From the NCBI GenBank assembly GCA_963815265.1, contig CAWFGI010000022.1, forward strand, positions 713,870 through 777,869: a stretch of 64,000 bases of DNA, in the 5' to 3' direction. The notes beneath the pieces are model-generated. The model ran no database searches. It was not told where the DNA came from and saw only the letters and a program-made list of their open reading frames with translations. Below, piece by piece: positions 1 to 47,947 of this stretch (positions are counted from its first letter, which is position 1; the number at the start of each line of letters is the position of its first letter). A program made the position numbers and the translations under genes. This stretch comes from an uncultured Acidobacteriota bacterium. Lineage in GTDB: Bacteria; Acidobacteriota; Terriglobia; Acidiferrales; UBA7541.

Positions 1-516
1 GTCAGGAATGCTCGCATTATCGCCAAACGTCTCGCTGATATGGGTGAAGCGGTCGACATTGCCGGGACCAAAGACAAAGCTTGCGCCAAGCTGGAATGGA
101 TTTTCGCCGAGTTTGTGCTGGCGATGGCCGGCGGCGTTGGCACGTTTGCGCGCATTGGCGTTATCGCGACGCAAAAGGTGAAGGAGGTTTGCGCGCTTTA
201 ATTCCGCGGCGCGGTATGCGGCGCGTTCCACATCAATCAGGAGAGGAAACGCGATTCCAGTCTCTTCCCGGAATGCACGCGCATAGTGAAAATCGCCCAT
301 CCCAATCGCCGCGAGGTTCGCTCCGCGCGCCTTGATTTCGTCCTGATGCTCGCGCAACTGCGCGACGTGCTCGCGGCAGAACACTCAGCCGTAGTGGCGC
401 AGGAAAACGATGACGGCCGGTTGCGACTCCCACAACGAGCCGAGCCGCACGGGACGCTCGTCCGCATCGGGGAGAACGATCATGGACAGCTTCGCGCTGA
501 GGCTTGCAGCGGTCAT
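1..516 (-). CDS. Peroxiredoxin-like (AhpC/TSA-like thioredoxin-fold) protein with an in-frame TGA at the first redox-Cys position. Candidate selenoprotein. The 3' end runs off the window.
   Basis: ATG at 516..514. The frame stays open to position 1 except for one TGA at 387..385. The translation ...PAVIVFLRHYG[TGA]VFCREHVAQLREHQDEIKARGANLAAIGMGDF...FPLLIDVERAAY... matches the FLRHxGCxxCR motif of peroxiredoxin-like family proteins. A stem-loop lies directly 3' of the TGA (340..384). Confidence 0.6.
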
Positions 517-690
517 CAGCTAGGCCTACCTTCTCGCCGGTTGAGTTTACCTCACGATATGGTTGGGCGCACGATCCCAGAGCAGTCCGGGATAGCGTTG
601 TTCGTGGACGTCTTCAGTGGACCTCCGGCGACGCTCACCCGCTGAACGCTGCGCGTGATATGTTTGCACACGAGGACGAAGGCCAGAGCG

Positions 691-2136
691 ATGGCAGCGG
701 ACAAACCAAAACAATCCTTCCACATGACTCCGGACGAGTTTCGCCGGCTGGGGAAAGAGATGGTCGACTGGATCGCGGACTATTACGAGCGCGTCGAAAC
801 GTTTCCGGTGCTGTCGCAGGCGAAGGCGGGCCAATTGCGCGCCGCGCTTCCCGCACAGGCGCCCGAGCGCGGCGAATTGTTTGACGCGATGATGGCAGAC
901 GTGGAGCGACTGATCTTGCCGGGCATCACGCACTGGCAATCGCCGAATTTCTTCGCCTACTTCCCTTCCAACAACTCGTTTCCGTCCATTCTGGGCGAAA
1001 TGCTCTCGGCTGGGCTCGGCGTCCAAGGAATGCTCTGGGCGACAAGTCCCGCGTGCACGGAGCTCGAGACGCACGTGCTTGATTGGCTCGTCGACATGCT
1101 CGCCCTACCCGCGGAATTCGCGTCGAGCGGGCCGGGCGGCGGCGTGATTCAGGATACGGCGTCGAGTTCTTCGCTGTGTGCGCTCCTTGCAGCGCGCGAA
1201 CGTGCTACGAACCTCCTTACGAACGAGCGAGGCTGTGACGGGCGGCTGGTTGCTTACACCTCGACGCAAGCGCACTCATCGCTCGAAAAGGCGGCGAAGA
1301 TTGCCGGTATTGGTAGCGCGAATTTGCGCGCGATCGAGGTGGATGAAAAGTTTGCGATGAGCCCTGCCGCCCTCGCTGCGCAGATCGGGCGCGACTGCGC
1401 CGCCGGCAAGATTCCCTTTTTTATCTGCGCGACAATCGGCACCACATCATCGAACGCGATCGATCCCGTGCGCGAAATCGCCTCCATTGCTCGCGAACAC
1501 GGTCTCTGGCTGCACGTTGATGCGGCTATGTCCGGCACGGCCGCGCTCTGCCCCGAATTTCGCTGGACGCACGACGGCGTCGAACTCGCCGACAGCTACT
1601 GCTTTAATCCGCACAAGTGGATGTTCACAAATTTCGATTGCGACTGCTTCTACGTGCGAGACCGCGCGGCGCTCGTCCGCCCGTTGAGCGTGCTGCCGGA
1701 ATTTCTGCGCAACCGCGCTACAGAATCGGGCGCGGTAATCGACTATCGCGACTGGCAGATCCCCCTCGGGCGGCGTTTTCGCGCTCTGAAGTTGTGGTTC
1801 GTGATTCGCCACTACGGGGTGAAGGGACTGCGCCATCACGTGCGGCGACATGTGGAGCTGGCGCAGCAGTTCGCACAATGGGTGCGCGCCGCCGAGCATT
1901 TCGAACTCGCCGCTCCTACACCGCTGAATCTCGTATGCTTCCGGCATCGCGCAGGCGATCTGGTCAACCAGAGCATTATGGATCGGCTGAATGCGAGCGG
2001 CGATCTATACCTGACGCACACGCGGCTCAATGACCGTTTCACTCTGCGAATGAGCATCGGGCAATCGCAAACGGAACTGCACCACGTTGAACGCGCGTGG
2101 CAACGGATTCGCGACGAAGCAGCCGCGATCGTTTAG
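691..2136 (+). CDS. PLP-dependent group II decarboxylase (aromatic-L-amino-acid/tyrosine decarboxylase-like)
   Basis: 493-aa ORF from 655; the ATG at 691 is preferred. The FNPHKWMFTNFDC Lys-PLP motif and overall DDC-like sequence are present (HWQSPNFFAYFP, GVIQDTASSS). Confidence 0.88.
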   Translation: MAADKPKQSFHMTPDEFRRLGKEMVDWIADYYERVETFPVLSQAKAGQLRAALPAQAPERGELFDAMMADVERLILPGITHWQSPNFFAYFPSNNSFPSILGEMLSAGLGVQGMLWATSPACTELETHVLDWLVDMLALPAEFASSGPGGGVIQDTASSSSLCALLAARERATNLLTNERGCDGRLVAYTSTQAHSSLEKAAKIAGIGSANLRAIEVDEKFAMSPAALAAQIGRDCAAGKIPFFICATIGTTSSNAIDPVREIASIAREHGLWLHVDAAMSGTAALCPEFRWTHDGVELADSYCFNPHKWMFTNFDCDCFYVRDRAALVRPLSVLPEFLRNRATESGAVIDYRDWQIPLGRRFRALKLWFVIRHYGVKGLRHHVRRHVELAQQFAQWVRAAEHFELAAPTPLNLVCFRHRAGDLVNQSIMDRLNASGDLYLTHTRLNDRFTLRMSIGQSQTELHHVERAWQRIRDEAAAIV

Positions 2137-2211
2137 CGCGTTGCAACTTATTTTGCAGACGCACTAAACCGTGCATAATAGCGGCTGCCCAAATTACCCC
2201 AGGAGTAATAA

Positions 2212-2778
2212 ATGCTTCAACCCTCTCCATCGAATACAAACCGTAAAGCTCTGCTGGCCGTCATAGGATTAGTGGTTGTGCTTGCGGGCTATACTTTGAC
2301 GCGCGGCGCCGATTCGAAAACTCCTGCTGTCGGCGCGATAGCTCCCGATTTCACGCTTGCCTCGCAGGATGGCACGCCCGTCAGCTTGCACGACTTCAAA
2401 GGCAAGTGGGTTGTCCTTTATTTCTATCCAAAGGACTTCACCAGCGGCTGCACCACCGAGGCGCACAATTTCCAGCGCGACCTGGCGCAATATCAGGCAA
2501 AAAATGCGGTGATCCTGGGCGTAAGCGTACAGGATGCCGATTCGCACAAGCAGTTCTGCGCGAAAGAAGAGCTCAACTTCAAGCTGCTCGCCGATACGAA
2601 CAAAAAAGTGAGCGAAGAGTACGGCTCGGTGATGAATTTCGGCATTGCGAAGCTTTCCGCGCGGCACACATTCCTGATCAATCCTGACGGGGTAATCGTC
2701 AAGGAATATATGGACGTCAACCCCAGTAAACACAGCGAAGAGGTGCTCGCCGCGCTGACAGAACTGCAAGCCAAGTAG
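2212..2778 (+). CDS. bcp: Thiol peroxidase/peroxiredoxin Bcp with N-terminal membrane anchor or signal
   Basis: FYPKDFTSGCTTE active-site motif, APDFTL...G..VSL..FKGKWVVLYF, and a hydrophobic N-terminus. Confidence 0.88.
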   Translation: MLQPSPSNTNRKALLAVIGLVVVLAGYTLTRGADSKTPAVGAIAPDFTLASQDGTPVSLHDFKGKWVVLYFYPKDFTSGCTTEAHNFQRDLAQYQAKNAVILGVSVQDADSHKQFCAKEELNFKLLADTNKKVSEEYGSVMNFGIAKLSARHTFLINPDGVIVKEYMDVNPSKHSEEVLAALTELQAK

Positions 2779-2813
2779 CGTCGGCTGGGCCACCGCCTTT
2801 TGCGGACCGCACG

Positions 2814-4232
2814 CTACTTGCGCAAGGCCCGTTTCGCGGCTAAGTGGCCGCACAGGCCGTGGACGCCCCCGCCGGGCGGTGTTGATGCCGAGCAGATGTA
2901 GATACGCGGGTCCGTCGTTGAGTAGAGCCGCCACGTGGGCCGCGTAAATAGTTGAGAAAGCATCACCGCGCCTCCCTCCACATCCCCGCCGACTAGATTC
3001 GCATTATGCTGCTGCAAATCGGCGGGCAGCATCACGCTGCGTTGCAAGATACGTGCACGAAAGCCCGGCGCGAAACGCTCGATCTGGGCCTCGATTACGC
3101 CCGACACGTCTTTGGTCGATCCGTTCGGTACGTGACAATACCCCCATGCGGTGTGTTTCCTCGTCGGTGCGCGCGAGGAATCGAAGAGCGTGGGCTGTGC
3201 GAGCAGCACAAACGGCGCCGGAGATTCGACGCCGTTCCACGCATCGCGCTCAGCGGTTGCAATTTCTTCGAGCGTGCCTCCTACGTGAACGGTTCCGGCA
3301 CGCGCGCATTCGGAGGCCTTCCAAGGAATCGGCGCGTCGAGCGCCCAATCAACTTTGCAGACGCCCGGTGCGTAGCGGTAACGTTCAAGCGCGGCACGAA
3401 AACCGGGCGTGAATCGCGAGCCAGCAATCGATAAGAGTGTGCGCGGCGAAACATCGAAGAACGCTGTGGTATCTGACGGAAGTTCATCGACGCTTGCCAC
3501 CGCGCTGGAGGTGCGAATTTCGCCGCCGAGCGAACGCAAATGCGCTGCCAACGCGTCAGCAAGCTTCTGCGTGCCACCGCGGACGATAGGCCAGCCGACC
3601 GCATGCGCCAGAATTCCCAGTATCAACCCGAATGCAGCGCTCGGCGAATCTTCAAGCGGAAGAATCGAGTGAGCCGCGAGGCCCGCGAAAAGCGCGCGAG
3701 CACGCACGTCCCGAAATTTCGATTTCGCGAGTGAGGAGGCGGAGCGCAGCGCACCCAAGCCAAACCGGGCGGCGATTAGCGGGTGCCGAGGGAATCTCAG
3801 CGCCCCGAGCAGTAGGGGTTCGAGTTTGGTCCAATTGCGCGCCAGCGGACCGAACAGCCCCGCGTAGCTCGCACCGTCCCGACCGAGGCCAGCCGCCGTC
3901 TTCTCCACGGAGCGTTCGACAATTACCGCCGTGCCATCATCAAGCGGGTGCGCGAGTGGCGCGTCGGGTTGAATAAACGCCAGTCCATGCTGCGCGAGCG
4001 GCAACGTGCGGAAAAAGGGCGAGGCAAGCGCGAGCGGCACAACCGCAGCGCAAACGTCATGGATAAATCCCGGCAACGTGAGTTCCGCCGAACGCATCCC
4101 GCCGCCAATGGTTGGCTCAGCTTCGAGGACCAGCACCGATTGCCCGGTTTGTGCGAGCGTAATCGCCGCCGCGAGACCGTTGGGCCCCGAACCAATGACT
4201 ACGGAATCGAATTGGCGCCCAGAGGCCGACAC
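2814..4232 (-). CDS. NAD(P)/FAD-dependent oxidoreductase, phytoene-desaturase (CrtI)-like family
   Basis: N-terminal dinucleotide fold DSVVIGSGPNGLAAAITLAQTGQSVLVLEAEPTIGGG, 472 aa, C-terminal ASTPPGGGVHG. Confidence 0.8.
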   Translation of the reverse strand: MSASGRQFDSVVIGSGPNGLAAAITLAQTGQSVLVLEAEPTIGGGMRSAELTLPGFIHDVCAAVVPLALASPFFRTLPLAQHGLAFIQPDAPLAHPLDDGTAVIVERSVEKTAAGLGRDGASYAGLFGPLARNWTKLEPLLLGALRFPRHPLIAARFGLGALRSASSLAKSKFRDVRARALFAGLAAHSILPLEDSPSAAFGLILGILAHAVGWPIVRGGTQKLADALAAHLRSLGGEIRTSSAVASVDELPSDTTAFFDVSPRTLLSIAGSRFTPGFRAALERYRYAPGVCKVDWALDAPIPWKASECARAGTVHVGGTLEEIATAERDAWNGVESPAPFVLLAQPTLFDSSRAPTRKHTAWGYCHVPNGSTKDVSGVIEAQIERFAPGFRARILQRSVMLPADLQQHNANLVGGDVEGGAVMLSQLFTRPTWRLYSTTDPRIYICSASTPPGGGVHGLCGHLAAKRALRK

Positions 4233-4333: not shown

Positions 4334-5152
4334 TCAATCAGCGGCGAGCATTTTCTTGGGCCAGCCCACTAAATAAGTAACTCTCAGCGGCAGGTTGGCG
4401 TTCGATTCCTCGCCAATCCGCCACTCGTAGTCGCGGCTCTTCACACCTGCAGTCATTGCGCGCAGGTCCGCAAGTGAATAAGCCCGCATGCAGGAAATCA
4501 GTCCGTCTACCAGAAGCACAAGCGGTACGACGGGAATGACATACGTCCAGAAAATGCGCGACCACCGAAACGGTTGGCGTGCTGGCGTAAAAAGCCAATC
4601 GGCGAGGGGTATCGCCAAAATCGTAAGTAGCGTGAAGGTATGCCGCGATGCAACCTCAAAAACTCCGATCCCCTGCCCCCTTGCCGCACTATCTCTTAAG
4701 AAGCGGCCGGCTTGTTCCGGATCGAAGTGGTGAAAGGAAGAAAAAATTGTGCGAAAACCCTGAAGCCGTTCCGGAATTGCCGTCGCATCGATCGGATCGC
4801 GGAGAAAGTTTATACCGTTCGAACAAGCCGTCCCTGCGCCGTCACTCGAAGCACCCGGATACTTGTCGGTAAGAAGAACTTTGACGGGCGGCGCGCCTTC
4901 CCTCTGAAAGAGTTGCACGAGCGAAGGCCATGGGCCGCCTGCGCCGGAAAAGAGATCGACTACCTCGCGGGCGCCCGAGCGATTCAGTGCCTCACGAAGC
5001 TGCCCGGCGATCGGCTTGTATGCGTTCGTGCGCTCCAGGATCATCTGCAGCGCGTCGAGTACTTCGCGCCGCAAGAAATCTGGAAACCAGTGCTGGTCGT
5101 GAATCTCGAAAAGCTCGAATCGCATCTGCCGTCGCGCGAACCCTCGCCACAA
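4334..5152 (-). CDS. Putative class I SAM-dependent methyltransferase fused to C-terminal membrane helices
   Basis: Motif-I-like VVDLFSGAGGPW, and hydrophobic segments near the C-terminus (TLLTILAIPLADWLF, WTYVIPVVPLVLLVDGLI). The start may be the Met at 5125. Confidence 0.45.
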   Translation of the reverse strand: MWRGFARRQMRFELFEIHDQHWFPDFLRREVLDALQMILERTNAYKPIAGQLREALNRSGAREVVDLFSGAGGPWPSLVQLFQREGAPPVKVLLTDKYPGASSDGAGTACSNGINFLRDPIDATAIPERLQGFRTIFSSFHHFDPEQAGRFLRDSAARGQGIGVFEVASRHTFTLLTILAIPLADWLFTPARQPFRWSRIFWTYVIPVVPLVLLVDGLISCMRAYSLADLRAMTAGVKSRDYEWRIGEESNANLPLRVTYLVGWPKKMLAAD

Positions 5153-9706: not shown

Positions 9707-10723
9707 GTGCGAGGCTTGTTATTCCGGGCGCCACGGCTTAGGTCGTGTTTAGTGGAGGAGAATTTGAATTACTCGAAGCGGCCAATCGGCGTTTACTACG
9801 AGCATCCGCGCTGGTTCGAGCCAGTGTTCGCGGAAATGGACCGCCGCGGAGTGCCGTACGTCCGCCTTGATGCAGCGCGTCACCACTTCGACGTCTCGCC
9901 AAATGGCGCGCAGCAATACGGCCTGATCTTCAACCGCATGAGCCCATCCGCATGGACGCGTGGCAATGCGCATGCGATCTTTTACACGCTCAGCTATCTT
10001 GCGCATCTCGAACGCATGGGCGTCCGTGTCATCAACGGTAGCGAAGGATTTCGCAACGAAACGTCGAAAGCTCTGCAACTTTCACTTCTCGAAACGCTCG
10101 GACTTCCCTACCCGCGCTCGGTCGTAATTAATCATCCCAGCCAGGCTGCCGATGCAGCGCGCGGAATGCGCTTCCCTGTGGTGATCAAGCCAAATATTGG
10201 CGGCAGCGGCGTGGGCATCGTGCGCTTCGATTCGCCCGGGCAGATTGAAGCGGCGGCGCGCGAAGATAAATTACAGTTCGGCCTCGACGGCACAGGGATC
10301 GTGCAGGAATTCATCCCCGCGCGAGGCGGGCACATTACGCGCGTCGAGACGCTCGGCTACAAATACCTCTACGGCATCAAAGTGTTCACTGCGGGCGACA
10401 CATTTGACCTGTGCCCGATGGACATCTGCAAGACCACAGACGGCGCGAAGATCGAAACGGCATGCGTGGTGGAAGGGCCGAAGACAGGTTTGCGCGTCGA
10501 AGGCTACCGCCCGCCGGTTGAGGTGATTTCGGCGGTCGAGCGGATTTTCAGCGCCGCGAAAGTGGAAGTGGGCGGCGTCGAGTACATCATCGACGATCGC
10601 GACGGCCGGCTCTACTACTACGACATCAACGCGCTCTCCAATTTTGTTTCCGATGGCCCGCGCGTCGTGGGCTTCAATCCGTTTGAACGCCTCGTCGACT
10701 ATCTGGTCCAGGAGGCGCGCTGA
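9707..10723 (+). CDS. ATP-grasp domain protein (RimK-like ligase fold)
   Basis: RFPVVIKPNIGGSGVGIVRF and GVEYIIDDRDGRLYYYDINALSNF are ATP-grasp signatures. The more likely start is TTG 9764, preceded by GGAGGA (9754..9759). Confidence 0.8.
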   Translation: MRGLLFRAPRLRSCLVEENLNYSKRPIGVYYEHPRWFEPVFAEMDRRGVPYVRLDAARHHFDVSPNGAQQYGLIFNRMSPSAWTRGNAHAIFYTLSYLAHLERMGVRVINGSEGFRNETSKALQLSLLETLGLPYPRSVVINHPSQAADAARGMRFPVVIKPNIGGSGVGIVRFDSPGQIEAAAREDKLQFGLDGTGIVQEFIPARGGHITRVETLGYKYLYGIKVFTAGDTFDLCPMDICKTTDGAKIETACVVEGPKTGLRVEGYRPPVEVISAVERIFSAAKVEVGGVEYIIDDRDGRLYYYDINALSNFVSDGPRVVGFNPFERLVDYLVQEAR

Positions 10724-22957: not shown

Positions 22958-23413
22958 TCACTGAATCTTAAGTATTACTTTAACCGTGTCGTCTACGTCT
23001 TCTTTCTTCACATAGCCTATAGCCCCGGCGTTGTCGGCGATCGCCTGCTTCATTTGCGCTCCAGACGCGACATCCTTCGGCGGAGCTGCCACTTTTCCTT
23101 GGAAGGCTGCTTGCATGAAATACTTTCCGTAGTCGGCTTCGCTCATTTTGTATATTTCGCGCAGCACCACTGCCCGTTCCGGCTGTCCTTGCGCTAGCAT
23201 CAAGATCGTTACCCGCTTGCCATTGGACCAGGTCGACTTATCGCCCATGAACAATTTGCGAGCATCCGCTAACGGCAGATCACCTGTCGGATTGGCTTTG
23301 TTCACTATAACGTCGACTTCGTCTCCCCCCGCATCCGCCGGCCGGGATGAAATACCTAAACCCGCGACAACGAGGGCGCCGGCAAGTAGTACGAATTGAA
23401 TTCGTTTAGCCAT
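22958..23413 (-). CDS. Small periplasmic PBP-like (PstS-family-like, single-lobe) substrate-binding protein
   Basis: Signal peptide, VIVNKANP...L....KLFMG.K..W.NG..V and AIGYV motifs as I remember them from short proteins annotated as phosphate ABC substrate-binding. Confidence 0.55.
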   Translation of the reverse strand: MAKRIQFVLLAGALVVAGLGISSRPADAGGDEVDVIVNKANPTGDLPLADARKLFMGDKSTWSNGKRVTILMLAQGQPERAVVLREIYKMSEADYGKYFMQAAFQGKVAAPPKDVASGAQMKQAIADNAGAIGYVKKEDVDDTVKVILKIQ

Positions 23414-23424
23414 GGCACTCTCCG

Positions 23425-24891
23425 TCAGAATGAAAAGCTCAATTGAGTTGATAGCTGGTTGTAGCTCTTCAAGTTTCGCTGAGAAAACCGGTCGTATTGA
23501 AACTTGAGCGCGGCGAAATTGTTGAGGTCGATACGAATGCCTCCTGATGCATCGTTCTGGCGACTAACGATCACGTCATTTGCAGCCGGACTAAAGGTCG
23601 GATCGGCATCATTAGCGTTCTCGAAGGCATATCGGAAATAGGGACGATACTTTCCGAACGCGTAGGACACCTGCGAATAAAATGCCGGCATGTCAAACGT
23701 CCGGCCGCCATGCGCGGCGTCGCGAATGTCCAGAGCCTCATTCAGCCACTCCAGCCGTTGGTTCTGATACACCACGTAAGCATCCATGATCGATTGACCT
23801 ATTTTCGGAAGTTCGGTCGGAGTCAAATCATCGTGATAAAACGAGAAACCTGTGATCAATCCGGAGAACCACGCAGGATGTGCGGACACATTAATATTGA
23901 ATGATTTCCCGTGATTGAAGTCCGTGCGGTTCTGCGCTGGCTCGTTCTCTGGAATGTGATCGCGGCCGTTCCCCACTTCCGCTACCCAGTGCAACCCAAA
24001 CTTCCCGGACGGAATATTCCCGTTGGCTGAGAATCCGATTTCTTGGAGTGGCATAAATCCGCCCTCATCGTCGAATCGGAACATAAGAGGCCGTCCGATT
24101 GGCGTGGCGAACCACTGGATGTGATGAAACGTCGCGTTGTAATAGCCTATGTCGGTATGGTAGCGGCCCACTCCGAATGTGAAGTAATCGTTGCGTTTGT
24201 ATTCGAGCATCAGCCGCTCTAAGTCCGGATTGATTGTGTTATCTGGCTGAGCCAGCAACAAGAATTCGCCGAGCACAGATATGTGGTCGGAAAGTCTCGA
24301 AGTTAGAAAAAGGTCCAGCGATCCTAGCTGAAAAGTATTTGCGCTCGGTCCCTGGTCGTTCGCAGCAAATCCCGCGTCCCCATAAGCATTCAGATGGAGT
24401 CGGGGCGACACTTCATTGATCTCGATGTCGGCCGGATGAGCAGGCACAGATGCTGTCGGCACCGCGGCTTCTGGCAGGGCGGGCGTAGCGGAGGCGGGAG
24501 CCACTGCAGAAGCATCTGCTGGCGAGGCGGTCACCGCAGCAGGCGCTGCTTGGTTCGATCGGCCAGGCGATTCTTTCGCTTCCAGTTCCGCCACCCGAGT
24601 CTGCAGCAGTTGTATCTGTTGTACAAGTTGCTGGAGGAGCTCCCGGTCTGTAGGGTTCGAATTCTCGGCCGTCTTGCTGTCTTTGTTGGTAGCGTCTTTG
24701 TTGGTAGCGTCTTTGTTGGTAGCGTCTTTGTTGGCCGCATCTTTTCCCGCTGAATCCTTATCGTCGTTCGTAAGGCCTCGCGCCGGAGCCGGCATCAGCA
24801 GAGCCATCAAAAAGATCGTGCCGCACCACGCAGGTTGAATGGCCGCGCGGTATCGCAGCGTCTCCACCCGGTTGAGATTTCGACATGACAC
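23425..24891 (-). CDS. Outer-membrane beta-barrel porin-like protein with N-terminal (NKDAT)n repeat and coiled coil
   Basis: Signal-like N-terminus, LLQQLVQQIQLLQTRVAELEAKE coiled coil, alternating beta-strand pattern, and a C-terminal ...QLSFSF aromatic terminus. Confidence 0.6.
   Translation of the reverse strand: MSCRNLNRVETLRYRAAIQPAWCGTIFLMALLMPAPARGLTNDDKDSAGKDAANKDATNKDATNKDATNKDSKTAENSNPTDRELLQQLVQQIQLLQTRVAELEAKESPGRSNQAAPAAVTASPADASAVAPASATPALPEAAVPTASVPAHPADIEINEVSPRLHLNAYGDAGFAANDQGPSANTFQLGSLDLFLTSRLSDHISVLGEFLLLAQPDNTINPDLERLMLEYKRNDYFTFGVGRYHTDIGYYNATFHHIQWFATPIGRPLMFRFDDEGGFMPLQEIGFSANGNIPSGKFGLHWVAEVGNGRDHIPENEPAQNRTDFNHGKSFNINVSAHPAWFSGLITGFSFYHDDLTPTELPKIGQSIMDAYVVYQNQRLEWLNEALDIRDAAHGGRTFDMPAFYSQVSYAFGKYRPYFRYAFENANDADPTFSPAANDVIVSRQNDASGGIRIDLNNFAALKFQYDRFSQRNLKSYNQLSTQLSFSF
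24679..24738. repeat. 15-bp tandem repeat, 4 copies (last one degenerate), inside the porin gene
   Basis: GTCTTTGTTGGTAGC x3 then GTCTTTGTTGGCCGC. It encodes DAANKDATNKDATNKDATNKD on the minus strand. Confidence 0.9.
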
Positions 24892-28722: not shown

Positions 28723-29217
28723 CATATATGGCCGCGCGAAATGCAAGTCCAAAATGCGTCTATCGGTCCGTCGCGGCCAGCCCCCTCGCCGCTACTCGAC
28801 CTTGCCCTGCCCCGCCTTGCTCCGCCGTTTTTCAGTTCTCACATTGAATTGTCGCCCGGCAAGCATTAGAATCCGCTCCAAGCCGAACCGGCCGGGATTC
28901 CAGAGCGTGGTCTCACCCCGGAACAGTTCGCACAGCACACGTTTTTTGATCCATTTCTTTGCGGCCACTCCAGCCTGGGCGGTCGTTCAATGAATCGTTG
29001 AGGTTTCAACCAAGGCGGCATCACTCGACACGCCGCCAAAACAAATCTGGGCGGAAGCGCGGAGATCTTTGGGAGGCACGAGCTGAGTAAGCTCGCCGAA
29101 CTCGTAACGCAGAAGTCTCGCTCCCGCAGGGCTAAGCGCAGAAAGTAAGCGTAAAAGCGCGCTCGTGGCATGCCTCTTGGCGTTCTTCGAAACCGCGCAA
29201 ACTGGGGAGGAAACAAC

Positions 29218-30102
29218 ATGAAGCGATTCAGAAGTTATGCACTGGCGTTCCTGATTTCCGCAGGACTGGGATTGGCGCTCGCAAGCGCCGCCCCTGTAAA
29301 GGCGCAGGCCACCGATTCAACCGATTCGAGCACCACTCCGGCAAAGAAGACGACCAAATCGAAGAAGAAGTCCACCGACGCAAGTTCCACAGATTCCAGC
29401 GACGCCTCTTCTTCGGGAAAATCTTCCACGTCGAAATCGAAGAAGGCGAAATCTGACTCTGACAGCGACTCTTCCGACAAGACCGCGTCAACCACTTCGA
29501 AGAAGTCCAAATCCGCCAAGTCGTCCTCCGGCGACACCGCTGCATCAGCGGACTCGGCATCAGACACAAAATCAAGCTCGAAGAAATCCAAGTCAGCGAA
29601 GGCTTCTTCGACCGATGCCAAGGCCGACTCAACAGCCTCAACGGATGCGGCTGGCACAAAGTCAACGAGTTCGAAGAAGTCAAAAGCTTCCTCGACCGAC
29701 ACGGCCGCTTCAAAAGACGCAGATGCCAGCACAAAATCGGCGAGCACAAAGAAATCCAAATCCACCAAGGCTGCAGACACGAATACATCCGCTGCAGCGA
29801 CCACAGCTTCGAGCTCAAATTCGGGTGCTGCGGCTCCCGCTCCGGCAAGCTCGAACCCACCTGCGTCTTCGAACTCAGCAGCCTCCACGAAACCAGCCAA
29901 ATCCACCAGCACCTCGGCCGCGAAGAGCAGCGCAAGCCAGCCGGCGCCTCCCGCGGGAAGCGGGCAGGTCTGGGTCAACACCGATTCCGGTGTCTACCAC
30001 AAAGAAGGAACCCGCTACTACGGCAAGACCAAAACCGGCAAATACATGTCCGAAGCCGACGCTCAGAAGGCCGGTTTCCATGCGGCGAAGAACGACCAAT
30101 AG
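29218..30102 (+). CDS. Secreted Ser/Lys/Asp/Thr/Ala-rich low-complexity protein with a conserved basic C-terminal domain
   Basis: ATG at 29218 after GGGGAGG, signal peptide MKRFRSYALAFLISAGLGLALASAAPVKAQ, about 230 aa of SKKSK/SSTD-type repeats, and C-terminus VWVNTDSGVYHKEGTRYYGKTKTGKYMSEADAQKAGFHAAKN. Confidence 0.6.
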   Translation: MKRFRSYALAFLISAGLGLALASAAPVKAQATDSTDSSTTPAKKTTKSKKKSTDASSTDSSDASSSGKSSTSKSKKAKSDSDSDSSDKTASTTSKKSKSAKSSSGDTAASADSASDTKSSSKKSKSAKASSTDAKADSTASTDAAGTKSTSSKKSKASSTDTAASKDADASTKSASTKKSKSTKAADTNTSAAATTASSSNSGAAAPAPASSNPPASSNSAASTKPAKSTSTSAAKSSASQPAPPAGSGQVWVNTDSGVYHKEGTRYYGKTKTGKYMSEADAQKAGFHAAKNDQ

Positions 30103-36512: not shown

Positions 36513-37310
36513 TTACCCTGGCGACAATTCTGGCAGATGTACCCCCGCCACCGAATCGCGCGGCTCAAGCAAATAGTCCGTCGTATCTCCGTGATTCTCC
36601 ACTCCGGTCGCCACAAACTCCTTGCCGAACAATTTCAAAAAATGCTGCCGCGTCAAAGCCTGCACGCGTTCGCCCGACGCTCGATCTCTCTTCTTCAGCT
36701 CCGAAATGTTGGCAGCAATAGAAATCCTCTGCACCGCCGGATTCGCCGGCGGCAAATTTCCAGCCAGAATTTCCTTCACGCGCACCGAATCGAGCCACCA
36801 TTCCGCCACCAGCCTATCGGTCGGCAACCCAGCGTGCAACGGACTCTCTGTCACCCCGTAGCAATCCGGGATGTAACGCCGCGCCACCGCCCCCAGCCGC
36901 ACCAGATTGAAATGCGCGTTCTTCAGCTCCAGCGGATCAAACGTCCACTCCACCAACGGAATCCCGCGCTTCAACGCGTCCTGCCTCTGAAATAATTTCA
37001 GCCGCCGCCCCACGCCTCGGTTCTGATACTCCGGCAGGACCGCTGTCATATGCGAATGCAAAAATCGCAGCGTCCCACGAAATCCAGCCAGCGCCAGCGT
37101 CATCCCGACGAGTTTCTCGCCGTCAAAAGCCCCGATCACCTGCCCGCCCGTATGATCCGCCACCACGAAAATCGGCGCCGGCACAGTAATCTCCTCGCCC
37201 CATATCACCCGCTCGAGCCGCACGCCCTCCTCGTACTCGTCAAGCGAATGGCACTGCCGAATTTCAATCCCATCCTTCACAATAGCAGCCATCTTATCAA
37301 CGCCTTTCAC
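36513..37310 (-). CDS. GNAT-like acyltransferase
   Basis: LPEYQNRGVGRRLKLFQR (Q/RxxGxG/A-type acyl-CoA motif), 265 aa, upstream of the racemase-like gene. Confidence 0.55.
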   Translation of the reverse strand: MKGVDKMAAIVKDGIEIRQCHSLDEYEEGVRLERVIWGEEITVPAPIFVVADHTGGQVIGAFDGEKLVGMTLALAGFRGTLRFLHSHMTAVLPEYQNRGVGRRLKLFQRQDALKRGIPLVEWTFDPLELKNAHFNLVRLGAVARRYIPDCYGVTESPLHAGLPTDRLVAEWWLDSVRVKEILAGNLPPANPAVQRISIAANISELKKRDRASGERVQALTRQHFLKLFGKEFVATGVENHGDTTDYLLEPRDSVAGVHLPELSPG

Positions 37311-47083: not shown

Positions 47084-47947
47084 TTATGTGGCGGGTACGG
47101 CGCGGCGCGACGCCCATTTGGAGGAAACGACCCATGCAGGATCAAACGTAAATAGATGCAGGAGCACCATGCCCGCCGTAAGATCGGGAAAAGAAATCAG
47201 CAGAAACAAACCGATATGGAGAGATAGCATCGCACTCCAGATCCATGGGCGAAGCTGTCGAAATAATGACAGCGGCGCGAATGCGACTTCTAATCCAAGA
47301 GCACTCCAAGTAGCTGCTTTCAGAAAGGGAGTGGGAAGAGCTAACAGCCAGTGACGAAGCGAGCCCGGCCTTGCGAGGGGATTTGAAAGTATTCGCGCGA
47401 GTGCGGTGCCATCAAGCCACGAAGGGCTCCCCAGCTTCATCACGCCGCTATAGCTGTAGCCCAGGGACATGAGTATCCACGCGACTAAATAAATTGCAGG
47501 AGGCATTTGCCAATTCTGATTCGGCTCTCGTCGGATGCGTGCGGCGAGCGAACCGACGGGTGCAGTGGGGAGAAAGGCATGCGCGAGCAACAACCATCCG
47601 ACATACGGAAGCGCAGGATTCGCAATCAGAGGGTTGCGCCCTAAGAAGCAGGCGCCGAAATACCAGAGGGTAATCGCGGCCACTCGATCCCATAGACCAA
47701 TCGCAAAGAGCACGGCTGCCAAGATTGCAATGACCAAAACCAGCTGCACAAAGAACGGCGAATCCCAAACAGCCAGGAGATTTGGGAAGAGATGGACCAG
47801 AGGGCTCAACGATGGCATCGGCAGCAAGCCCCGGTCGGAAAATAATTCCGGACCCCATGGCAGTAACTGGGCATAGTGGAGCGCAAGATAGCTTCCGAAG
47901 AGAGCGCGAAAAATGCTGTACTGCCCGCCCGTCCAGCCGTTTTTCAT
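47084..47947 (-). CDS. Polytopic membrane protein, HTTM/SdpB-like (tentative)
   Basis: YSIFRALFGSYLALHY..., AILAAVLFAIGLWDRVAAITLWYF..., NPALPYVGWLLLAHAFLP resemble HTTM-domain proteins. Its ATG overlaps the upstream stop (ATGA). Confidence 0.45.
   Translation of the reverse strand: MKNGWTGGQYSIFRALFGSYLALHYAQLLPWGPELFSDRGLLPMPSLSPLVHLFPNLLAVWDSPFFVQLVLVIAILAAVLFAIGLWDRVAAITLWYFGACFLGRNPLIANPALPYVGWLLLAHAFLPTAPVGSLAARIRREPNQNWQMPPAIYLVAWILMSLGYSYSGVMKLGSPSWLDGTALARILSNPLARPGSLRHWLLALPTPFLKAATWSALGLEVAFAPLSLFRQLRPWIWSAMLSLHIGLFLLISFPDLTAGMVLLHLFTFDPAWVVSSKWASRRAVPAT

Follow-up and report, generated by a model that had tools for sequence, protein, structure and literature searches.

The 64,000-nucleotide stretch of DNA analyzed here (the window) comes from an uncultured bacterium of the phylum Acidobacteriota (assembly GCA_963815265.1, contig CAWFGI010000022.1, positions 713,870 to 777,869), and its left edge carries, on the minus strand at 1..516, codons 1-172 of a 179-codon gene that very probably encodes a selenoprotein of the SelL-related, PRX-like2 (AhpC-TSA_2) type with a UxxC motif, as judged from the translation, the Pfam and NCBIfam matches and an identical copy of the locus, L098. 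The start codon ATG (514..516, minus strand) is kept in the related loci L001-L005, which come from metagenome-assembled genomes (MAGs), and the 43-aa open reading frame (ORF) in GenBank begins at the same codon. Codons 2-43 (388..513, minus strand) form an N-terminal coding segment with the beta-strands before the active site, and they are followed by an in-frame UGA (385..387, minus strand), predicted to encode selenocysteine (Sec) 44, the nucleophile of the UxxC motif, and by a TGC (376..378, minus strand) for Cys47, the predicted resolving Cys of that motif, which is invariant across the alignment. A hairpin (348..366, minus strand) lies just downstream within the coding sequence. The reading frame is as the original prediction, made from the DNA letters and an ORF list, had described it: MTAAS...VIVFLRHYG (43 codons), TGA at 387..385, and then VFCREHVAQLRE..., with no further stop up to the window edge.

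L098 belongs to NCBI assembly GCA_049697515.1, contig JBAVVV010000355.1 (Candidatus Acidiferrales; Acidobacteriota, Terriglobia), and holds the complete gene of 179 codons (4352..4891), of which the window is short of seven codons and the TGA terminator. The gene ends there with ...SIPDVLSALST followed by TGA (4352..4354). Within one mRNA, TGA would accordingly be read in two ways at sites 135 codons apart, and the hairpin is found only after the first of them. The window also matches a 448-kb ENA metagenome contig (ERZ25039525 contig_174947), on which the identical gene occurs, as it does on a contig of 819 kb.

In the public records the gene is cut in two at the UGA, as had been foretold for ORF callers: GenBank lists MGB9245463.1 (43 aa, hypothetical protein WCC03_19100) and MGB9245462.1 (135 aa, AhpC/TSA family). 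The cluster of the 43-aa fragment has 36 members, single members of which occur on up to 25 contigs each, and exact protein pieces of the window gene were found on six contigs. The nearest database proteins (75-95% identity) are all fragments of 124-136 aa that start with MFCREH, gene calls whose first codon comes right after a TGA. Many of the C-terminal fragments (P0011, P0012, P0015, P0020, P0122, P0125, P0126 and others) carry the JGI label 'methylphosphotriester-DNA--protein-cysteine methyltransferase', a name that neither Pfam nor NCBIfam supports and that looks like a propagated misnomer. The value of the present result is therefore mainly corrective, since one gene is stored as a 43-aa hypothetical protein and a 135-aa AhpC/TSA fragment in GenBank, JGI and ENA; the same split recurs in dozens of soil Acidobacteriota protein clusters, the family models under-score the fragments, and soil selenoprotein counts come out too low.

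The in-frame UGA and the protein family

The TGA had been proposed to stand at the catalytic Cys column, with the signature of a Sec/Cys pair, and both proposals held. Cys homologues with 61-73% identity over the full length read FLRHYGCIFCREH, the TGA is aligned to the first Cys of CxxC in at least 18 full-length homologues, and the UGA column corresponds to the first Cys of FLRHYGCxFCREH. Moreover, the codon is conserved in the closest relatives sampled, which come from the Terriglobia order Candidatus Acidiferrales and from related metagenome and MAG assemblies: TGA is found at codon 44 in 5/5 related MAG loci (L001-L005), in all 80 metagenome loci with 67-92% protein identity (a sample of 80 kept out of 580 metagenome matches), and in 84 of the 84 close relatives retrieved by a motif search, plus two more recognized by eye.

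Coding constraint is present on both sides of the codon. Apart from this TGA, 83 of the 84 distinct TGA sequences are free of any other stop, and the pooled ratio of nonsynonymous to synonymous substitution rates (dN/dS) is 0.15 upstream and 0.05 downstream of the TGA. In the upstream codons the amino acids are conserved and the synonymous entropy is near maximal; conserved residues, free synonymous codons and a dN/dS of 0.15 together mean that the segment before the TGA is translated in frame and under selection. In addition, TGA is the commonest stop codon in the window, where it ends 25 of 51 long ORFs, and it also terminates the selenoprotein gene itself, therefore UGA is not reassigned.

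Two deviating copies were seen among the relatives. In L005 (10001..10515), which is among the five related MAG copies, the frame shifts about 80 codons past the TGA, through either decay of this copy or an error in the MAG assembly. L100 (301..825, protein P0027) has GGA (Gly) at the Sec codon, an intact hairpin and a 3-aa deletion further on; this allele may have been inactivated, or the assembly may be wrong here.

Family searches were run with Cys in place of the in-frame stop. The protein matched Pfam PF13911 AhpC-TSA_2 (PRX-like2) with 62.3 bits (E = 6.9e-17), above the 27-bit gathering threshold, and PF00578 AhpC-TSA with 49 bits. The only specific NCBIfam match was NF040769 (SelL-related redox protein; E = 1e-34, whole length), for which the curated cut-off is 120 bits: the window fragment scored 116.2, the gene completed from L098 with Cys for Sec 119.6, the orthologue L001 122.4 and the Cys homologue P0003 125.1 bits, the clade thus straddling the cut-off.

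For the fold, a 70%-identical Cys homologue (AlphaFold model with a predicted local distance difference test score, pLDDT, of 93) stood in for the window protein. The model has a thioredoxin/peroxiredoxin fold, and its Sec-equivalent residue follows strand 33-37 at the N-terminus of helix 44-55. The nearest solved structure is that of human prostamide/prostaglandin F (PGF) synthase (PRXL2B; PDB 9us9/9usa; sequence E = 7e-6, fold template modeling (TM) score 0.81-0.88), whose own active-site CxxC, C44/C47, aligns with U44/C47 of the acidobacterial protein; the human enzyme is eukaryotic, has Cys instead of Sec and shares only about 21% identity, and its substrate specificity is not transferable. 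The canonical peroxiredoxin site Pxxx(T/S)xxC does not occur in the acidobacterial protein, FLRHYGUVFC having neither a Thr/Ser three residues before the Sec nor the preceding Pro. Despite the PF00578 match, the active site is of the CxxC type, as in ResA and PRXL2.

The hairpin downstream of the UGA

An apical hairpin UCGCGC-AGUU-GCGCGA had been expected downstream of the UGA, and it is present at 365..350 on the minus strand, with a 5' arm at 365..360 (UCGCGC), a loop at 359..356 (AGUU) and a 3' arm at 355..350 (GCGCGA). A G366-C348 pair is an optional extension of the stem to 348..366, and the loop nucleotide G358 lies 27 nt past the A of the UGA. With a folding energy of -10.2 kcal/mol, the 19-nt hairpin was matched in stability by only 2 of 200 shuffles. 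The model of the bacterial selenocysteine insertion sequence (bSECIS) describes a loop of 3-9 nt, a stem of 4-16 bp, a G among the first two loop positions, a spacing from the UGA of 16-37 nt and a minimum free energy (MFE) of -7.5 kcal/mol or lower (PMC13188914). The hairpin agrees with this model in its 4-nt loop AGUU (G at position 2, then U), its 6-bp stem, its 25 nt between UGA and loop and its -10.2 kcal/mol. A second copy of the hairpin was not found in the window.

The outer stem that had been proposed around this hairpin did not stand up. GUUCUG and CAGGAC can pair in the window sequence, yet this stem is only 62.5% paired across the 84 relatives, two of the six pairs are broken in most of them, and it is missing from the MFE fold of the 48-nt region. 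The hairpin itself is 96-99% paired (98.8% of cells in the 84 sequences), with several GU wobbles in the stem and rare changes that keep the pairing; L027 has a single compensatory GC to AU double change, which comes at the cost of an Ala to Thr replacement.

The case for the hairpin was built on comparative evidence, chiefly on the codon-entropy profile, the thermodynamic z-scores of the wider region being unremarkable and the covariation statistics weak. Synonymous variation is suppressed across codons +3 to +11 after the UGA (352..378, minus strand; C R E H V A Q L R): the relative codon entropy amounts to 0-0.11 at codons +3 and +7 to +11 versus 0.55-1.0 at nearly all other conserved columns, and the proportion of synonymous differences (pS) comes to 0.32 over codons +1 to +12 versus 0.69-0.75 elsewhere. 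The sequence GTC GCG CAG TTG CGC G (columns 22-37 of the 84-sequence alignment, window 366..351) is near-invariant, synonymous sites included, and the low-entropy hairpin codons include those for Val, Ala, Leu and Arg, amino acids with four to six codons each.

The Cys forms of the family served as a control. In L091 (601..1134), which has TGT, one base away from TGA, the hairpin is retained base for base, and this locus looks like a recent Sec to Cys convert with a remnant SECIS; remnants of this sort are already known from genes that recently converted to Cys (PMC1794560). In L092 (TGC) a single hairpin pair is broken, and L093 and L094 (both TGC) have lost the hairpin through changes, among them GTG, CTG and CTC, that never occur in TGA forms. 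Because the closest Cys forms keep the hairpin wholly or partly, more diverged Cys forms were needed as a control, and in four distant Cys forms the hairpin is absent. Overall, the hairpin core is intact in 83/84 TGA forms and in 1/8 Cys forms (Fisher p = 7e-9). The hairpin is under RNA-level constraint in the TGA forms and has decayed in the diverged Cys forms. Together, the Sec forms, the apparently recent TGT convert, whose hairpin is intact, and the decayed Cys forms offer a clean natural series in which Sec/Cys exchange and SECIS decay can be studied.

Selenocysteine and the alternative readings

We are highly confident that the UGA at codon 44 is a Sec codon in a thioredoxin-fold redox enzyme and that the conserved mRNA hairpin downstream belongs with it. 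Further, we infer the insertion of Sec itself, the recognition by SelB, the chemistry and the nature of the substrate as follows. The hairpin 25 nt past the UGA, with its 6-bp GC-rich stem and AGUU loop, would act as a bacterial SECIS; SelB with Sec-tRNA(Sec) would bind it when the ribosome reaches the UGA, and Sec would be delivered at codon 44 in competition with release factor 2. The product would have a U44-V-F-C47 selenol/thiol center at the N-terminus of its first helix. Its chemistry may follow that of CxxC thioredoxin-fold enzymes: the selenolate would attack an oxidized substrate, either a peroxide or a disulfide, and form a selenenylsulfide with Cys47, which a thioredoxin-like donor would then reduce. 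Sec decoding has been reported in Acidobacteria (PMC1794560), and a cultured member of the Acidobacteriota, Occallatibacter riparius, decodes Sec and has AhpD-like, deiodinase-like and FdhA selenoproteins (PMC12013277).

Several observations weigh against this assignment. Neither the 64-kb window nor some 577 kb of related loci yielded a selA, selB, selD or tRNA-Sec gene: tblastn with E. coli SelA, SelB and SelD probes gave no match in the 577 kb, ARAGORN detected no tRNA of any kind in the window or in 38 related loci, and Pfam annotation of 40 window ORFs returned ordinary chromosomal genes and no sel gene. Missing sel genes near the locus are uninformative, because their linkage to a selenoprotein gene is not expected. 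Rfam returned no bacterial SECIS for the whole window at the gathering threshold or for 1..700 at E up to 10, its sole match being a chance microRNA (E = 9) in 1..700, and the z-scores of the wider region (48-66 nt) do not stand out in a GC-rich sequence such as this. Covariation is thin, with one compensatory pair, because the stem is nearly invariant. VAQLR is conserved in the Cys forms too, hence part of the nucleotide conservation acts at the protein level. Selenium in the product is a prediction from sequence.

That no Sec machinery was seen in the stretches searched also speaks for a reading in which the hairpin-recoded UGA specifies another residue, either Cys, supplied by a UCA-anticodon tRNA(Cys) that resembles tRNA-Sec, together with a SelB paralogue, or Trp, by near-cognate read-through. 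Precedents for the former are tRNA(Cys) species of the selC* type, which have opal anticodons, and SelB* paralogues, both known from some anaerobic bacteria, and unusual tRNA-Sec-like allo-tRNAs in Acidobacteria (PMC7609411). We nevertheless regard insertion of another residue as improbable: selC*/SelB* have been described for Firmicutes, Thermodesulfobacteria, Nitrospirae and Proteobacteria and not for Acidobacteria, which are documented Sec users; Cys insertion would maintain a costly UGA in more than 85 lineages without obvious gain, when a single TGA to TGC or TGT change suffices and does occur; and a Trp nucleophile position would leave the motif inactive. A related and equally doubtful version is that the hairpin steers recoding of the UGA outside the canonical SelA/SelB/SelC/SelD route, through a SelB paralogue and a tRNA-Sec-like tRNA that insert Cys or another residue, or through a lineage-specific SelB. 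In the latter variant SelB would read the sequence of the 16-nt invariant stem-loop, beyond its shape; the stem-loop is unusually sequence-invariant across about 30% protein divergence. A change of the code itself, with UGA reassigned genome-wide to Trp (code 4) or Gly (code 25), might seem to be indicated by the W at the Sec position of some database family members (GWIFC), but this W is an artefact: the DNA of P0009 (L099 77..610) has TGA and translation table 11 does not give the database protein, therefore P0009 was called under a TGA=Trp code. Reassignment is refuted by the stop-codon usage described above and can be given practically no weight.

Taking the UGA as a true stop, with a 43-aa peptide and a separate 135-aa protein made by re-initiation at the adjacent GTG, would fit the annotation, in which gene callers report exactly two ORFs, and the window does have a GTG directly after the TGA. 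In most relatives, however, the codon after the TGA is ATC, ATT or CTC, none of them a usual start, and the frame and adjacency of both parts are kept without exception. A split would also sever the redox motif and divide the thioredoxin fold at the junction of strand and helix; on NF040769 (cut-off 120) the stub reaches 76.5 bits versus 119.6 (window) and 122.4 (L001) for the fused read-through; and the synonymous constraint specific to the hairpin would be left unexplained. We therefore consider termination at this codon very improbable. Still less credible is a pseudogene or a sequencing or assembly error, in which a TGC or TGT was mutated or misread to TGA. The later frameshift in L005, and the GGA and the 3-aa deletion in L100, speak for it, but more than 85 independent assemblies, made by different projects with different technologies, share this TGA, 83 of 84 relatives lack other stops, dN/dS is 0.05-0.15, and exact pieces of the gene recur on six contigs. 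This explanation is effectively refuted by the conservation data.

Read as a selenoprotein, the acidobacterial protein falls in with known groups. UxxC peroxiredoxin (Prx)-like and thioredoxin-like proteins are among the commonest predicted prokaryotic selenoproteins (PMC2398784, PMC1794560, PMC9312934). Eukaryotic SelL has a thioredoxin fold of the PRX-like2 type with Sec in the redox motif at the equivalent structural position. According to the 2007 description by Shchedrina and colleagues, SelL reportedly has a UxxU motif, whose two Sec residues form a diselenide, and a eukaryotic SECIS in the 3' untranslated region. The acidobacterial protein differs in having UxxC (TGC occupies the second position in all 83 sequences) and a bacterial hairpin within the ORF. 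SelL has also been cited as a Prx-like selenoprotein (PMC2398784).

The Prx-like thiol:disulfide oxidoreductase selenoprotein of Geobacter (UxxC/UxxU, WP_010940744.1) likewise has a thioredoxin fold related to PF00578, Sec as the first residue of UxxC and a bSECIS within the ORF, and the function of this type of protein is likewise only predicted. We rejected orthology to it, as the match is distant: BLASTP gave 31% identity over 72 aa (E = 2e-6), and WP_010940744.1 scored 27 bits on NF040769. The Geobacter protein (about 235 aa) has the motif GAWUPYC versus HYGUVFC in the window protein, and an N-terminal region with about 50 extra aa. A PF13911 AhpC/TSA selenoprotein has been catalogued as UxxS in Olavius symbionts (PMC9312934, PMC13188914). 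It shares the Pfam domain and has Sec first in the motif; as catalogued, it differs from the form described here, which has UxxC and comes from soil Acidobacteriota. The acidobacterial UxxC protein probably belongs to the PF13911/NF040769 branch, for which the catalogues consulted give UxxS as the only motif, and it is not a new kind of selenoprotein.

The SECIS element of E. coli fdhF is, as here, a hairpin within the coding sequence, immediately 3' of the UGA; its apical loop is small and bears GU, and its spacing falls in the 16-37 nt range. It also has a bulged U on the 5' side. The acidobacterial hairpin differs from it in sequence and shows no conserved 5'-side bulged U, any bulge being on the 3' side. 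Knowledge of the mechanism of Sec decoding is unchanged by the finding. All 85 of the closest relatives sampled have the Sec form and not the Cys form, and in soil Acidobacteriota the family occurs predominantly in this UxxC Sec form. This dominance bears on the view of selenoproteins as mainly a trait of anaerobes, and its ecological interest is modest.

Genomic neighborhood of the gene

A crude screen of the window for in-frame TGA codons with coding-like flanks gave no second credible selenoprotein candidate. The Pfam annotation of the window includes glyQS, recO, ppdK, icd, ribF, a radical-SAM methylthiotransferase (UPF0004/Radical_SAM/TRAM), parB and exbB. Seven ORFs of 151-488 aa in the window matched no Pfam family at an E of 1e-5 or lower, namely 23425..24891, 22958..23413, 4334..5152, 36513..37310 and 47084..47947 on the minus strand and 9707..10723 and 29170..30102 on the plus strand.

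Upstream of the selenoprotein gene and divergent from it lies a gene for a pyridoxal phosphate-dependent decarboxylase (691..2136, plus strand; Pfam PF00282, 411 bits), and two genes away lies one for a PrxQ/BCP-like Cys peroxiredoxin (2212..2778, plus strand; Pfam AhpC-TSA 138 bits, NCBIfam PrxQ-like below the cut-off). Linkage to the decarboxylase is kept in the Acidiferrales clade (L001-L005, L011, L016, L017, L021), and the PrxQ-like peroxiredoxin is syntenic in relatives. The neighbors in this clade comprise the divergent upstream decarboxylase, the PrxQ-like peroxiredoxin and a flavin adenine dinucleotide (FAD) oxidoreductase (window 691..4232), together with a luciferase-like monooxygenase, which is encoded on the same strand as the selenoprotein and about 100 nt downstream of it (L098 3208..4260). 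More distant relatives are without this arrangement. The conserved neighbors may form a functional redox cluster with the selenoprotein gene.

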